From the NCBI RefSeq assembly GCF_011045215.1, contig NZ_CP049201.1: DNA of 64,000 nt; one strand, given 5' to 3'. The translations under genes and the position numbers were made by a program. This document shows, piece by piece, positions 38,838 to 45,232 of the stretch. Origin of the DNA: Escherichia coli. Its GTDB lineage: Bacteria; Pseudomonadota; Gammaproteobacteria; Enterobacterales; Enterobacteriaceae. Numbering within the stretch: position 1 is the stretch's first letter; every line of letters begins with the position of its first letter. The notes beneath the pieces were generated by a model that worked only from the letters and a program-made list of their open reading frames with translations, did no database searches and was not told the DNA's origin.

Positions 38838-40265
38838 ATGTCGATCAAAACCAGTAATACAGATTTTAAGACACGCATCCGTCAGCAAATTGAAGATCCG
38901 ATCATGCGCAAAGCGGTGGCAAACGCGCAGCAGCGTATTGGGGCAAATCGGCAAAAAATGGTCGATGAATTGGGGCACTGGGAGGAGTGGCGCGATCGGG
39001 CCGCCCAGATACGTGATCATGTTCTGAGTAATCTCGACGCTTATCTGTACCAGCTCTCAGAAAAAGTGACGCAAAACGGCGGTCACGTCTATTTTGCAAA
39101 AACCAAAGAAGACGCTACCCGCTACATTTTACAGGTTGCCCAACGCAAAAATGCCCGGAAGGTGGTGAAATCTAAATCGATGGTGACCGAAGAGATTGGT
39201 ATCAATCATGTGTTGCAGGATGCTGGCATTCAGGTGATTGAAACCGATCTGGGTGAATATATTCTCCAGCTGGATCAAGATCCGCCATCTCATGTTGTGG
39301 TCCCGGCAATTCATAAAGATCGCCATCAGATCCGTCGAGTGCTACACGAACGTCTGGGCTATGAGGGGCCGGAAACGCCTGAAGCGATGACCTTATTCAT
39401 CCGGCAAAAAATCCGCGAAGATTTCCTCAGTGCTGAAATAGGTATTACCGGCTGTAATTTCGCGGTGGCAGAGACAGGTTCGGTATGCCTGGTGACCAAT
39501 GAAGGTAATGCGCGAATGTGTACCACGCTGCCTAAAACGCATATTGCAGTGATGGGAATGGAGCGTATTGCCCCCACGTTTGCCGAGGTAGATGTATTGA
39601 TCACCATGCTGGCGCGCAGTGCCGTTGGTGCACGTTTGACGGGATACAACACCTGGCTGACAGGACCGCGCGAAGCGGGGCACGTTGATGGTCCTGAAGA
39701 GTTTCATCTGGTTATTGTCGATAACGGGCGTTCTGAGGTGCTGGCCTCTGAATTTCGGGATGTGCTGCGCTGTATTCGCTGCGGGGCTTGTATGAATACT
39801 TGTCCGGCATATCGCCATATTGGCGGTCATGGATATGGCTCTATTTATCCAGGGCCAATTGGTGCGGTGATTTCTCCGCTACTTGGCGGCTATAAAGATT
39901 TTAAAGATTTACCCTACGCCTGCTCTTTATGCACAGCTTGTGACAACGTGTGTCCAGTGCGTATTCCGCTGTCAAAACTGATTTTGCGTCATCGTCGGGT
40001 GATGGCTGAAAAAGGGATCACCGCAAAAGCAGAGCAACGGGCGATAAAAATGTTCGCTTATGCCAATAGTCATCCAGGATTGTGGAAAGTCGGGATGATG
40101 GCCGGCGCTCATGCGGCAAGCTGGTTTATCAATGGCGGCAAAACACCACTCAAATTTGGCGCGATTAGCGACTGGATGGAAGCACGCGATCTTCCTGAAG
40201 CTGACGGAGAGAGTTTCCGTAGTTGGTTTAAGAAACATCAGGCGCAGGAGAAAAAGAATGGATAA
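38838..40265 (+). CDS. ykgF: LutB-like 4Fe-4S ferredoxin-type oxidoreductase subunit
   Basis: 475 aa with two CxxCxxCxxxCP clusters (CIRCGACMNTCP, CSLCTACDNVCP). Confidence 0.85.
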   Translation: MSIKTSNTDFKTRIRQQIEDPIMRKAVANAQQRIGANRQKMVDELGHWEEWRDRAAQIRDHVLSNLDAYLYQLSEKVTQNGGHVYFAKTKEDATRYILQVAQRKNARKVVKSKSMVTEEIGINHVLQDAGIQVIETDLGEYILQLDQDPPSHVVVPAIHKDRHQIRRVLHERLGYEGPETPEAMTLFIRQKIREDFLSAEIGITGCNFAVAETGSVCLVTNEGNARMCTTLPKTHIAVMGMERIAPTFAEVDVLITMLARSAVGARLTGYNTWLTGPREAGHVDGPEEFHLVIVDNGRSEVLASEFRDVLRCIRCGACMNTCPAYRHIGGHGYGSIYPGPIGAVISPLLGGYKDFKDLPYACSLCTACDNVCPVRIPLSKLILRHRRVMAEKGITAKAEQRAIKMFAYANSHPGLWKVGMMAGAHAASWFINGGKTPLKFGAISDWMEARDLPEADGESFRSWFKKHQAQEKKNG

Positions 40266-40953
40266 TCGAGGCGAATTTTTGAATAACGTTGCTCAGGCAC
40301 TGGGTCGCCCGCTGCGACTTGAACCGCAAGCAGAAGATGCGCCGCTTAACAACTATGCTAACGAGCGGCTTACCGAACTTAACCAACAGCAGCGCTGTGA
40401 CGCGTTTATTCAGTTTGCCAGCGATGTTATGTTGACGCGCTGTGAACTGACCAGCGAGGCGAAGGCGGCAGAAGCTGCAATACGACTGTGTAAAGAGCTG
40501 GGAGATCAGTCGGTCGTGATTAGCGGTGACACGAGGCTGGAGGAATTAGGGATTAGCGAACGTTTGCAGCAGGAATGCAATGCCGTTGTTTGGGATCCGG
40601 CGAAAGGTGCCGAGAATATCTCGCAGGCAGAGCAGGCTAAAGTGGGTGTCGTGTATGCTGAATATGGTTTAACCGAATCGGGAGGCGTGGTTCTTTTTTC
40701 CGCCGCCGAGCGTGGGCGTTCATTGAGCCTGCTCCCGGAATCATCTCTTTTTATCCTGCGTAAAAGCACTATTCTGCCGCGTGTAGCGCAACTCGCAGAA
40801 AGATTGCATCAGAAAGCGCAGGCCGGTGAACGCATGCCGTCATGTATTAACATCATCAGTGGTCCCAGCTCAACGGCGGACATTGAGCTTATCAAAGTCG
40901 TCGGGGTTCATGGTCCGGTGAAAGCGGTGTATCTGATTATTGAGGATTGCTGA
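40258..40953 (+). CDS. ykgG: LutC-like subunit (DUF162)
   Basis: Start at ATG 40258 (MDNRGEFLNN…), overlapping the ykgF stop by 8 nt; the ORF-track start at 40111 lies inside ykgF. Confidence 0.8.
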   Translation: MDNRGEFLNNVAQALGRPLRLEPQAEDAPLNNYANERLTELNQQQRCDAFIQFASDVMLTRCELTSEAKAAEAAIRLCKELGDQSVVISGDTRLEELGISERLQQECNAVVWDPAKGAENISQAEQAKVGVVYAEYGLTESGGVVLFSAAERGRSLSLLPESSLFILRKSTILPRVAQLAERLHQKAQAGERMPSCINIISGPSSTADIELIKVVGVHGPVKAVYLIIEDC

Positions 40954-41059
40954 GAGAGGTATGAAGTCTGGACATAAACCTGAAGAAGGCATACGAGGTT
41001 GAAAATAGCGTTAAGGACAACCTGACTTAACCCCGTTCCGTCATGGTTATGCTCCTCTT

Positions 41060-41100
41060 CTGTAAATATCCTGGCATTAGTAATGCCAGGATATTTACAG
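41060..41100. other. 41-bp near-perfect palindrome between convergent ykgG and ykgH
   Basis: CTGTAAATATCCTGGCATTA-G-TAATGCCAGGATATTTACAG: 20-bp perfectly complementary arms around one central base; no canonical U-tract on either strand. Confidence 0.5.
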
Positions 41101-41195
41101 TGAAAAAGACAGGCATCCATTCCTGAAAACGGGTTCCCTTCCCGGTCATTGTCACTTCAGCTTTATACAGGCACTCTCTATCAGAATGCTGTTTA

Positions 41196-41864
41196 TTACT
41201 GCCCAGAGTTTTGTTGGTATTCATCTACCATTTTTTTGACAAGGCAAAACATTACAGAAATTACAATGCTTATAAAAAATCCCAGAGCTAGGTAAATGGC
41301 AGCAGGGTATTTATTTTTTATTTCTGGTGAGCTTATAGTTACACAGCCATCACCGTTTGGATACAATGACCAGTTCCTGGTCAGGTATATCATTTTTGTA
41401 TAAAGCTCACTGTTAATTGCTGAAGGCGTTTGTATCTCATCGAGAACTTGCCTGCCATTATGGTATTCTGACGCATACCATTTGATAATAGACGCCTGCA
41501 CGTGAGATATTTCCGCTTCAGCAGTTGGTAAATCTCTCTTATCTCCTGACCATTCCAGCTTTATTTCTCTGTTCTTGACATCTGGGCTGGTGTGAAAAAA
41601 TGTAGTAATTCGCTGAATAACATCTTCAGTCATTGTGGTCTGACAGGCAAAGTTATTATTGCTATCACAGTTAACAAGTATACCTGGCGTTGTCTGGTTT
41701 ATTTTTAGGCTGTAAATCACTTTTATATTGTCTTTATTGATATACAGAAACAACAGCACCATAGCCATACATATAGCCATAATAAAAAGGATAACACGAA
41801 TCTTTTTCTTCAGATAAAATAAAATCTCAATCAGATCGATATCCTGTTTGATTTGTTCACTCAT
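41196..41864 (-). CDS. ykgH: inner membrane protein YkgH
   Basis: 222 aa, one N-proximal transmembrane segment followed by a periplasmic domain; position between ykgG and betA. Confidence 0.75.
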   Translation of the reverse strand: MSEQIKQDIDLIEILFYLKKKIRVILFIMAICMAMVLLFLYINKDNIKVIYSLKINQTTPGILVNCDSNNNFACQTTMTEDVIQRITTFFHTSPDVKNREIKLEWSGDKRDLPTAEAEISHVQASIIKWYASEYHNGRQVLDEIQTPSAINSELYTKMIYLTRNWSLYPNGDGCVTISSPEIKNKYPAAIYLALGFFISIVISVMFCLVKKMVDEYQQNSGQ

Positions 41865-42057
41865 AATATATCCAGAAAATAAAATCTGCCGCAGATAAAT
41901 GAATTAATAGTCTGTATCAGGAATGTTCGGGTTAAATATCAGCAAAAAGCCAGCATCATGAATACTGGATATGAAGCATGAGAGTTACCTCAGTGTTTAT
42001 ATAAGGATTCGGCCCCCCTCTCTGGAACGGTAACTCTCAATCTGATCGGTTCCTGCG

Positions 42058-43746
42058 TTAGTTCACATCACGACTCATTTTTTTCGCTCTCACCGGCATC
42101 CCATTTGCCACAAAATATCCCGCCGTGCTCCTCGGCAACGCTTCCTGTCCACGAATCATGTCCGCTATTTTCTCGCCAATCATAATTGTCGTGGCGTTCA
42201 AATTCCCGGTGATAATCTGCGGCATAATTGACGCATCCACCACGCGCAGGCCTTCCAGCCCATGCACGCGGCCTTCGCCGTCAACCACGGACATCTCGTC
42301 GTAGCCCATTTTGCAGGTACCGCACGGATGGAAGGCGGTTTCGGCGTGATTACGCACGAACTCATCGAGCTGCTCATCCGTCTGACATTCCGTGCCGGGG
42401 CTGATTTCGCGGCCACGATACTGATCCAGCGCTGGTTGATGCATGATCTCGCGGGTGATGCGAATTGCGTCGCGGAACTCCTGCCAGTCCTGCTCGTGCG
42501 ACATGTAGTTAAACAGAATCGCCGGATGCTGGTGCGGGTCGCGGGATTTAATCCGCACATGCCCACGGCTTGGCGAGCGCATCGATCCGACGTGGCACTG
42601 GAAGCCGTGCTCTTTCACTGCATTCGAGCCGTTATAGTTAATCGCTACTGGCAGGAAATGGTACTGAATATTCGGCCACGCAAATTCCTCTCGGCTGCGA
42701 ATAAATCCGCCTGCTTCAAAGTGGTTGCTGGCACCAACGCCGGTGCCGCCAAACAGCCACTCCGCACCGATTTTCGGCTGATTCCACCACTGCAGGGCAG
42801 GGTAGAGGGAAACCGGTTCTTTGCACTCATATTGCAGATACATCTCCAGGTGATCCTGAAGATTTTCGCCGACGCCGGGTAAATCATGCACCAGCGGAAT
42901 ATCAAACTCCGCCAGCAGTTCAGCGCTACCCACGCCGGAACGTTGCAGGATCTGCGGAGAGGCGATCGCACCTGCACATAACAGCACCTCTTTATTCGCT
43001 GTCGCGCGGGTTGGAATGGTGCTGTCGCCTTCCTGCCACTCGACGCCCACCGCGCGTTTGCCGTCAAAAATGATGTGATCGGTCATAGCGTGAGTACGAA
43101 TGGTCAGGTTAGGGCGCGATTTGGCCTGATCGAGATAACCGCGCGCGGTACTGGCGCGACGGCCCTGCGGCGTGACGGTGCGATCCATCGGGCCAAAACC
43201 TTCCTGCTGATAGCCGTTGAGATCGTCCGTGCGCGGGTAGCCTGCCTGCACGCCCGCTTCAATCATCGCTTCAAACAGCGGATTGACGCCGGGTTTGGAG
43301 GTGGTGACGCTCACCGGGCCATCACCGCCGTGATAGTCGTTATCACCAATATCGCGCGTCTCGGCCTTGCGATAGTAGGGCAGGCAATCGAGATAGCTCC
43401 AGTTCTCCAGGCCGGGTTCTTTCGCCCAGTTGTCGAGATCCAGCGCGTTGCCACGGATGTAGCACATGCCGTTGATCAGCGACGATCCACCCAGGCCTTT
43501 ACCGCGTCCGCACTCCATGCGGCGGTTATTCATAAACGGTTCAGGTTCCGTTTCATAGGCCCAGTTGTAGCGTTTACCCTGTAGCGGGAATGCCAGGGCA
43601 GCGGGCATCTGGGTGCGGAAGTCAAAGCGATAGTCCGGGCCGCCCGCTTCAAGCAGCAGCACGGAGGTATTCGGATCTTCAGTCAGACGGGTAGCGAGAA
43701 CGTTGCCGGCTGAGCCGGCACCAATAATGATGTAGTCAAATTGCAA
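42058..43746 (-). CDS. betA: choline dehydrogenase (GMC oxidoreductase)
   Basis: GMC flavoprotein; start assigned to TTG at 43744-43746 ([15 protein letters not shown]…) with GGAGG 5 nt upstream, because the ORF-track ATG start lies inside betB. The C-terminus runs 6 codons (MSRDVN) past …VRAKK. Confidence 0.85.
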
Positions 43747-43759
43747 ATAAACCTCCTGG

Positions 43760-45232
43760 TTAGAATATGGACTGAAATTTAGCCATCTCAACCTGGATGG
43801 ACTTCACCTGGGTGTAACTCTGGAGCGTCATCACGCCGTTCTCGCGACCAATGCCGGAGTGTTTGTAGCCGCCAACGGGCATCTCTGCCGGGGATTCGCC
43901 CCAGGTGTTGATCCAGCAAATACCCGCTTCCAGCTGATGAATGACGCGATGCGCGCGGTTCAGGTCCGCCGTCACGATGCCCGCCGCCAGGCCGTAGTCG
44001 GTATCGTTAGCGCGGCGAATGACTTCGTCTTCCGACTCGTAGGTCAGAATGGACATCACTGGCCCGAAGATCTCTTCACGCACGATGGTCATATCGTCGC
44101 TGCAATCGGTGAACACTGTCGGTGCAACCCATGCGCCGTTATCGAAGCCATCGCCTTTCAGTACATCGCCGCCGCACAGTACGCGCGCGCCTTCCTCTTT
44201 GCCTTTGGCGATATAGCGCAGCACGTTATCGCGATGCGGGAAGCTGACCAGCGGGCCGAAGTTAGTTTGCGGATCGAAAACGTCGCCCGCGCGAATGCGC
44301 TCAACGCGCGCCAGAATTTTCTGCTCAAATGCGGCTTTGCATTTCGCCGGAACGAAGACGCGGGTGCCATTGGTACACACCTGACCGGAGCTGAAGAAGT
44401 TTGCCATCATGGCGATATCGGCGGCGAGATCGAGATCCGCATCATCGAAAACGATCAGCGGTGATTTACCGCCCAGTTCCATGGTCACTTCTTTCAGGGA
44501 AGAGGCCGCCGAGTTAGCCATCACTTTTTTGCCGCTGGCGACACCGCCGGTAAATGACACTTTGGCAATGCCCGGATGCTCGGTCAGATATTGCCCGGTC
44601 TCCGCGCCCACGCCCGGCAACACGTTAAATACGCCGTCCGGCAGGCCCGCTTCGCTGTAAATTTCAGCCAGCTTTAACGCGGTAAGCGGGGTGACTTCGC
44701 TCGGTTTGAAAATCATTGCGTTGCCTGCCGCCAGCGCCGGGGCGGATTTCCACAGGGCAATCTGGATCGGGTAGTTCCATGCGCCAATCCCCGCCACCAC
44801 GCCCAGCGGTTCGCGGCGGGTATAAACAAATGACGTCTCACGCAACGGGATCTGGCTGCCTTCCAGCGCCGGGATCAGCCCGGCGTAGTACTCCAGCACG
44901 TCCGCACCGGTAACGATATCGACGGTTGAGGTTTCCGAATATGCTTTTCCGGTATCGAGGGTTTCCAGTTTTGCGAGTTCGTCATTGCGTTCACGTAGAA
45001 TATCAACGGCCCGACGCAGAATACGCGAGCGTTCCATAGCGGTCATCGCCGCCCAGATTTTTTGCCCCTGTTGGGCACTCTTCACGGCGCGATCGACATC
45101 CTCGCGCCCGGCGGCCTGCACGGTCGCCAGCACGTTACCGTTGGCCGGGTTAATGGTCTCGAAGGTGCGACCGCTGGTGGCGGAGGTATAACCACCATGT
45201 ATATAAAGCTGCTGTTCTGCCATTCGGGACAT
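43760..45232 (-). CDS. betB: betaine aldehyde dehydrogenase
   Basis: 490 aa aldehyde dehydrogenase ([15 protein letters not shown]…), immediately upstream of betA. Confidence 0.9.

Follow-up and report, generated by a model that had tools for sequence, protein, structure and literature searches.

The 41-bp palindrome between the convergent genes ykgG and ykgH of Escherichia coli lies immediately outside a stable, Hfq-bound RNA and within the zone in which Rho finishes off read-through transcription, as is established by mapped RNA ends and Rho-dependent regions. The palindrome itself is neither a terminator nor part of the stable sRNA. We tentatively favor the view that it is a transcript-boundary hairpin that would form only in read-through RNA, where the U tail would be paired, the helix would be long enough for RNase III and the read-through would be cleared. 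Within the reach of the literature search made, the palindrome is not described as such.

The palindrome is real and unusual in form. It was found in a stretch of 64,000 nucleotides, here called the window, and a re-reading of the letters confirmed the original prediction of two 20-nt arms, which are 100% complementary around G41080 (Table 1). It is the sole long perfect inverted repeat of the window, in which the remaining inverted pairs are 76-88% complementary, and the arm sequence occurs only at these two places, compared with 0.01 occurrences expected from shuffles. The palindrome is located in a 242-bp spacer, 96-136 nt past the ykgH stop codon. The full spacer folds as one long hairpin; inverted similarity outside the 20-nt arms is faint (z about 2.3), and an extended symmetry of the whole spacer was rejected on this basis.

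Table 1. Features in and around the palindrome, in window coordinates.
Feature	Position	Strand	Sequence or type	Remarks
Left arm	41060..41079		CTGTAAATATCCTGGCATTA	41060-41073 invariant in 13 good-quality strains; variable positions 41074 and 41075
Central unpaired base	41080..41080		G in the window	C in Combat11I9, O157 and K-12 types; A in B2 type
Right arm	41081..41100		TAATGCCAGGATATTTACAG	IS1 inside the arm in strain RM9088
ykgG	40258..40953	+	lutC-type lactate utilization gene	Upstream, convergent; annotation in matching E. coli records
ykgH	41196..41864	-	Low-GC, Escherichia only	Annotation in matching E. coli records
Purine run	41052..41059	-	AAGAGGAG	Immediately 3' of the palindrome; paired with the U5 tract in folds of read-through RNA
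U5 tract	41103..41107	-	UUUUU	Last U, 41103, is MG1655 324603, the Term-seq 3' end, 2 nt before the palindrome
Two small hairpins	41110..41147	-	CGGG..CCCG then UUUU; CAGG..CCUG then UCUUUUU	3' part of the Hfq-bound ykgH 3'-UTR RNA
C-rich, G-poor stretch	40899..41018	-	C/G 2.1-3.8	Downstream of the palindrome; putative site of Rho loading; fits the 324578 zone

RNA folding, which had been proposed as a check of the original prediction, revealed that the 86-nt context is far more stable than its shuffles on both strands, with -38.1 kcal/mol (z = -7.1) on the plus strand and -39.9 kcal/mol (z = -8.3) on the minus strand; on either strand, 0 shuffles folded as well as the native sequence. Folded as DNA, the 41-mer reaches -19.1 kcal/mol (z = -11.9). 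In each of the four sequence types described below, RNA of either strand forms a very stable hairpin (-31 to -40 kcal/mol, z = -5.5 to -8.3). RNA that contains both arms folds into 19-20 continuous pairs (-27.8 kcal/mol), and on the minus strand pairing between the U5 tract and AAGAGGAG extends the helix to about 27 bp (-33.0 kcal/mol for 41050-41110), an extension that is kept in folds of the K-12 and B2 sequences. These lengths match the approximately 20 bp or more of near-continuous dsRNA that characterize RNase III substrates, and the earlier suggestion of an RNase III-type processing hairpin is, as far as such modeling goes, viable. The genes ykgE, ykgG and ykgH are absent from the list of Gordon 2017.

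The claim that no U tract follows the stem holds for both strands: the plus strand continues with UGAAAAAGA and the minus strand with AAGAGGAG. A terminator scan returned 0 sites, a usable U tract being absent, which agrees with the earlier statement that this is not an ordinary terminator. Because of the symmetry, two short open reading frames at 41043-41126 (+) and 40908-41120 (-) share the peptide core CKYPGI(S/T)NARIFT; small open reading frames running through the palindrome were rejected as genes, with no convincing ribosome-binding site and none of them annotated. On the minus strand (41027-41059), an AUG with a 5-codon open reading frame (MTERG), likewise not annotated, begins 8 nt past the AAGAGGAG run; this Shine-Dalgarno-like run is weaker in K-12 (AAGAGCAG).

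Published K-12 data can be placed on the window because MG1655 coordinates correspond to window coordinates plus 283,500. From 5' to 3', the minus strand contains the ykgH stop codon, the two small hairpins, the RNA end at the U5 tract, the dinucleotide CA, the palindrome, AAGAGGAG and the C-rich stretch. A strong Term-seq 3' end is located at 324603 (-); Supplementary file 1 of Adams et al. 2021 (PMC7815308) has it in two places, with scores of 43,492 and 126,276. The sequence listed for this end, ...GCCTGTCTTTTT/CACTGTAAAT, ends in ...GCCUGUCUUUUU and is followed by CACUGUAAAU (PMC7815308). In the range 32454x-32465x, 324603 (-) is the only entry of the Term-seq tables on either strand, and none is found at the foot of the hairpin (PMC7815308). 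Mapping of the transcript 3' ends had also been proposed at the outset, and the published maps place the end before the stem and none past it. The mapped 3' end at 41103 thus precedes the palindrome, which runs from 41100 to 41060 on the minus strand and lies outside the ykgH 3'-UTR RNA.

The RNA that ends at this position has been reported by RIL-seq as 'ykgH 3' UTR', a putative Hfq-bound 3'-UTR sRNA (Melamed 2016, PMC5145812; Bar 2021, PMC8175672). It was represented by 826 chimeric fragments with 8 partners and a second-in-chimera score of 0.875, and the RIL-seq feature table gives a U-tract length of 5, which is consistent with 41103-41107 (PMC5145812; PMC8175672). Northern blots with two probes failed for this candidate, while an RNA-seq pile-up was still seen (PMC5145812; PMC8175672); both probes lie past the ykgH stop codon and short of the palindrome, at window positions 41124-41153 and 41115-41138. 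The two small hairpins that precede the RNA end are weak (-4.1 and -4.0 kcal/mol), and their composite fold of -10.3 kcal/mol is no better than that of shuffles.

Rho-dependent termination was reported on both strands. On the minus strand, the best coordinate of the Rho termination region is 324578 (window 41078), inside the palindrome (PMC7815308, Supplementary file 2), a coarse value because it derives from 800-nt windows. Coverage upstream and downstream of it is 160/16 without BCM and 572/199 with BCM, giving a Rho score of 3.48 with p = 4.4e-7 (PMC7815308). On the plus strand, the published K-12 data place the best coordinate at 324913 (window 41413), antisense to ykgH, with a score of 6.7 and p = 2e-23. 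This peak is approximately 310 nt beyond the palindrome, and suggests that transcription of the ykgEFG strand reads through the spacer into antisense ykgH.

On the ykgH strand, as the published K-12 data show, most transcripts stop at U5 and yield the Hfq-bound ykgH 3'-UTR RNA, and those that pass U5 undergo Rho-dependent termination. In the mechanism that we tentatively favor, the hairpin in read-through RNA would hide the U tail from Hfq and, at the same time, would present dsRNA of sufficient length for RNase III to act on. Read-through transcripts would then be cut and cleared, not kept. Such clearing would curb antisense transcription entering ykgEFG and ykgH; the terminated, Hfq-bound RNA would be the only stable product.

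The positions of the mapped features favor this mechanism: the 3' end at 41103 is exactly 2 nt before the palindrome, and the best Rho coordinate of the minus strand lies within it. Because no 3' end is seen at the hairpin foot, where a stable exonuclease stop should leave one, read-through RNA with the hairpin at its end does not build up. The high stability of the hairpin on both strands, the pairing of U5 into the minus-strand helix, the C-rich stretch behind the palindrome, the plus-strand Rho peak beyond it and the Hfq association of the ykgH 3'-UTR RNA, which is mostly the second partner in its chimeras, point the same way. Several observations count against it. Selection on the stem is not detectable, both common derived sequence types carry one broken pair, and a natural isolate tolerates IS1 in the right arm. 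The failed northern blots for the ykgH 3'-UTR candidate and the coarseness of the Rho coordinate weigh on the same side. Moreover, ykgH is a pseudogene in some strains, and the unit may therefore matter little.

The palindrome locus is present in 5141 of the 5426 complete E. coli genomes (blastn with a 61-nt query). The median of two places per genome reflects both strands of one locus, and the palindrome is thus single-copy. A genome-wide search for further copies of the arms had been suggested with the first description, and it revealed no multi-copy repeat family. Phages and viral contigs contained 0 matches to the palindrome, and the plasmid matches were exclusively K-12 F-primes or mislabelled chromosomes. 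Membership in the REP/BIME, ERIC, BoxC or MITE families, which requires many copies per genome, was rejected given the one locus found, and neither a direct repeat at the ends nor related copies on mobile DNA, as would mark a MITE or IS relic, were present. Rfam returned no family at the gathering threshold, and only generic microRNA-hairpin models, which are eukaryotic, were matched, at 19-27 bits where the thresholds are 70-160. A repeat or mobile element is excluded because the palindrome is single-copy.

YkgH homologues are all at least 75% identical and were found only in Escherichia. A scan of genome contigs for YkgH loci outside E. coli yielded two contaminant contigs only, and the three lowest-identity matches examined were broken genes in poor assemblies or genes split by insertion sequences. 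For YkgH, no Pfam family was found above threshold, and a sub-threshold similarity (E = 0.0012) links it to Wzz chain-length determinants, namely to their N-terminal transmembrane part. The ykgH DNA has a GC content of 30-41% compared with about 50% for ykgEFG, and the palindrome is located at the GC drop into the ykgH segment. In O157:H7 F8798 (internal stop) and in RM9088, ykgH is annotated as a pseudogene. Downstream of ykgH, the window contains (42046-43791 and beyond) a GC-rich autotransporter gene, annotated as hyxB in the near-identical Combat11I9; in K-12, betA directly occupies its position, and in APEC the UpaB cluster is inserted between betA and ykgH (PMC4844996).

In relatives that share 84-87% identity in YkgG, relatedness of the DNA ends at the stop codon: the very next base already belongs to unrelated sequence, and different genes follow. 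Judged from these sequences, the relatives sampled lack both the spacer and ykgH, which rules out a cross-species covariation test. In two of the four spacer types of these relatives (L010; L013/L014), a GC-rich hairpin CCGCTCTGG...CCAGAGCGG without a U tract directly follows ykgG (L010:3125-3170, L013:3196-3245); such terminator-less hairpins may be a recurrent feature downstream of ykgG.

Within E. coli, variation was analyzed in 13 good-quality strains and 17 metagenome copies, which fall into four sequence types. A perfect palindrome is found with a central G in the window, 118UI, O104:H4 and strain 12089, and with a central C in Combat11I9 and O157. The K-12 type has a T at 41075 and CC at 41080-41081, and the B2 type has an A at 41074 and a central A. 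The perfect arms first described are thus correct for this window and do not apply universally, as the K-12 and B2 types each contain one disrupted pair near the apex; the locus as such is present in 5141 of 5426 genomes. Based on blastn identity bands, we roughly infer that some 43% of the genomes carry a perfect or near-perfect palindrome and 57% one of the two imperfect forms. In each imperfect form, one stem transition produces a G-U pair on one RNA strand and an A-C mismatch on the other, and the hairpin still reaches -31 to -37 kcal/mol. Neither the 13 strains nor the 17 metagenome copies contain compensatory changes; only one-sided transitions were seen.

The spacer diverges at approximately the rate of third codon positions, and the palindrome, with 5 variable sites in 41 nt compared with 28 in the 201 nt of its flanks, is not clearly slower. 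The basal 14 bp of both arms contain 1 variable site in 28 nt, with about 3.9 expected (p about 0.08). Substitution events cluster in the loop, which could mean either that the stem is constrained or that the loop is a mutational hotspot. Across 271 nt, the window is distinguished from Combat11I9, and likewise from O157:H7 F8798, by base 41080 alone, a G in the window and a C in both strains. For a palindrome with perfect arms, this G/C swap is equivalent to inverting the hairpin as a whole, and it could be a flip of the loop by template switching. K-12 contains 3 substitutions within 7 nt at the apex (41075-41081; MG1655 L001:1676-1682) and 4 in the other 201 nt of the spacer. Together, the central-base flip and the clustered K-12 changes suggest hairpin-driven mutation in this handful of strains. 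Insertions were found in two strains. In RM9088, in which ykgH is frameshifted, IS1 is located inside the right arm (L017:1245-2014) and accompanied by a duplication of 9 bp, CCAGGATAT. In AH19D088, an IS3-family element (L019 about 1625-1717) is found approximately 36 nt left of the palindrome and replaces the spacer from about 41024 onward.

Almost as likely as the preferred reading, and like it well short of even chances, is the possibility that the palindrome is a mutational product without function, generated in AT-rich DNA of horizontal origin, either by an inverted duplication or by template switching that corrected a quasi-palindrome. The nearby RNA end would then need nothing more than the weak upstream hairpins together with the U5 tract and Hfq, and the palindrome would persist because the element is young and because 41 bp are too short for instability. 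Nothing in the population data rejects this explanation. It agrees with a single-copy element that is confined to E. coli in the samples available, and with the unrelated DNA past the ykgG stop codon of the relatives; with a palindrome that evolves no more slowly than a spacer at third-codon-position rate and lacks compensatory changes; with the hairpin-driven look of the G/C flip in otherwise identical strains and of the three K-12 changes; and with the tolerated IS1 and the faint trace of symmetry in the flanks. The scarcity of variable sites in the basal arms and the concentration of substitution events in the loop are less easily accommodated, and the position of the palindrome, which abuts a mapped RNA end and the center of a Rho zone, would have to be a coincidence. 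Furthermore, upstream hairpins of -4 kcal/mol look too weak for a strong 3' end. This last point leads to another, clearly less probable alternative, according to which the strong U5 end of the Hfq-bound ykgH 3'-UTR RNA requires the downstream palindrome and is not made by the feeble upstream hairpins. A cut within or beside the long helix could generate the end once the RNA is trimmed back as far as the U tail held by Hfq; alternatively, the downstream sequence could pause the polymerase at U5, with release by Rho or Hfq. A Term-seq score of up to 126,276 behind stems of only 4 bp (-4.0 kcal/mol for the one before the U tract) argues for such a dependence, as does the increase in read-through from approximately 10% to approximately 35% upon BCM addition, which shows that the coverage drop is partly Rho-dependent. 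On the other hand, approximately 65% of the coverage drop survives BCM, the succession of stem, 7-nt U-rich tract and RNA end has the geometry of a weak intrinsic terminator, and the Hfq-binding module looks complete without the palindrome. If this alternative were correct, an RNA that lacks the very palindrome it needs would exemplify a route of sRNA 3'-end formation outside the canonical terminator model; if the palindrome were neutral, its flipping central base and clustered apex changes would provide a clean natural example of hairpin-driven mutation.

The remaining explanations are considerably less plausible. There is only a slim chance that the palindrome acts at the DNA level, either by binding a protein dimer or tetramer or by forming a cruciform, even though its dyad symmetry is perfect and its center AT-rich. 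For the dimeric protein site raised initially, the only candidate is a genomic SELEX peak of the RpoE holoenzyme in vitro at W3110 323832 (approximately window 41108), 8 bp from the palindrome (323784-323824), and this peak is weak (5.6 with a cut-off of 4.0), the array resolution is coarse and many such peaks exist in AT-rich DNA. Inspection by eye found no acceptable match to a SigmaE promoter (GGAACTT-N16-TCTGA/TCAAA) under the peak. No promoter is nearby because the genes converge, and 0 promoter-like sites overlap the palindrome. The outer hexamers TGTAAA and TTTACA are identical to TyrR half-sites. In the TyrR box, with its consensus TGTAAA-N6-TTTACA, these half-sites are 6 nt apart, whereas those at 41061-41066 and 41094-41099 are separated by 27 nt. 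The K-12 apex, TGGTATTACCA / TGGTATTACCAAT, resembles GntR/FadR-type operators (PdhR/LldR; TGGT-N3-ACCA), and this motif adjoins a lactate-utilization operon in K-12 but is missing from the window; no matching operator was found. A cruciform would be disfavored by the positive supercoiling between converging polymerases. The palindrome has marginally poorer prospects still as the relic of a hairpin element, mobile or dispersed (REP, MITE or IS end), that might have come in with ykgH. The location of the palindrome at the GC drop would suit such an arrival, and a scan of metagenomes for hairpins made of the 12-bp lower stem around a center of 9-13 nt recovered, besides the 17 E. coli copies, 7 non-E. 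coli contigs in which the lower stem GTAAATATCCTG / CAGGATATTTAC recurs. Three of these contain a near-identical hairpin of about 37 nt, TGTAAATATCCTGGCCC-NNN-GGGCCAGGATATTTACA, in unrelated flanks (L034:1283-1320, L044:1220-1257, L050:463-499), and a fourth has a looser version (L043:2646-2690). Sharing by three contigs points to a small dispersed hairpin family in environmental bacteria, at least one contig being assigned to the Desulfobacteraceae by a neighboring gene that is 90% identical to a Desulfospira gene. A lower stem of 12-14 bp, TGTAAATATCCTGG / CCAGGATATTTACA, is also seen in the non-E. coli contigs L037/L040 and L047. Against a relic, which had been among the initial suggestions, stand the single locus per E. 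coli genome, the lack of phage, viral-contig and true-plasmid copies, and the absence of a transposase, of a target duplication and of flanking homology with the hairpins from metagenomes; a cultured relative lacks a copy within 20 kb. Moreover, the scan was conditioned on the arm sequence and covered a very large, hairpin-rich database, in which a few chance matches are expected by rough estimate. The stem shared between E. coli and the environmental hairpins is probably a coincidence. The least credible proposal is a non-canonical bidirectional intrinsic terminator for ykgEFG and ykgH, as the mid-way position between convergent genes and the very stable hairpin on both strands might suggest. 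On either strand, U- or pyrimidine-rich runs precede the stem and no U tract follows it, and the Rho peak of the plus strand is displaced well beyond it. A proper intrinsic terminator is excluded because the flanks are reversed and no RNA end lies past the stem: there is neither a U-rich tract 0-2 nt past the stem nor a 3' end at 32454x-32456x (-) or 32460x-32465x (+). A REP-like exonuclease stop is likewise excluded because no RNA end is found at the hairpin foot on either strand.

If the palindrome is a transcript-boundary hairpin, it would represent a chromosomal, sib-like control element, in which one palindrome sorts a stable Hfq-bound RNA from disposable read-through. Two transcription units would be insulated from mutual antisense RNA, and the unconventional 3' end of a reproducible RIL-seq sRNA candidate would be explained. 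The stakes are local, because ykgH is poorly expressed, of unknown function and a pseudogene in some strains.

As a 3'-region hairpin between convergent genes, beside an already reported sRNA candidate, the palindrome belongs to a type of element that is already known. In sRNAs, the 3' module bound by Hfq reportedly consists of a U-rich stretch, a hairpin and a poly-U tail (Ishikawa et al. 2012 are said to have described it). The minus-strand segment 41147-41103 has a similar layout of hairpin-UUUU-hairpin-UCUUUUU up to the mapped 3' end, and the RNA is Hfq-associated; the palindrome differs in being outside the RNA, starting 2 nt past its end. Quasi-palindromes are said to be hotspots of template switching, in work attributed to Ripley and to Dutra and Lovett. 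The clustered apex changes and the G/C flip resemble such hotspots and hairpin-loop inversions, a likeness that for the palindrome would be drawn from a handful of strains.

Bidirectional intrinsic terminators (Ju, Li and Liu 2019) also use one symmetric hairpin for two converging units. In these, an A tract precedes the stem and a U tract follows it on each strand, whereas this order is reversed in the palindrome (U-rich before, A-rich after), the stem of which is about twice as long and AT-rich. With REP/BIME elements and the 3' stem-loops that stop exonucleases (Dar and Sorek 2018), the palindrome shares its location as an intergenic hairpin between convergent genes in a Rho-dependent zone. 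In contrast to REP/BIME elements, it is single-copy and unrelated in sequence, and the lack of a 3' end at its foot is the opposite of what a stabilizer would leave.

The preferred reading of a transcript-boundary hairpin is modeled on sib retroregulation in lambda, in which an RNase III hairpin exists only in read-through int transcripts; by this analogy, the palindrome may be cleaved by RNase III. Two differences are apparent: the upstream stop is the tI terminator in lambda and the Hfq-bound U5 end here, and the palindrome yields a hairpin from both DNA strands, with Rho as the only known read-through switch. In both cases, a hairpin downstream of a gene is complete only in RNA that extends past an upstream stop, its helix has the length required by RNase III, and the terminated RNA is expected to be stable and the read-through RNA unstable.
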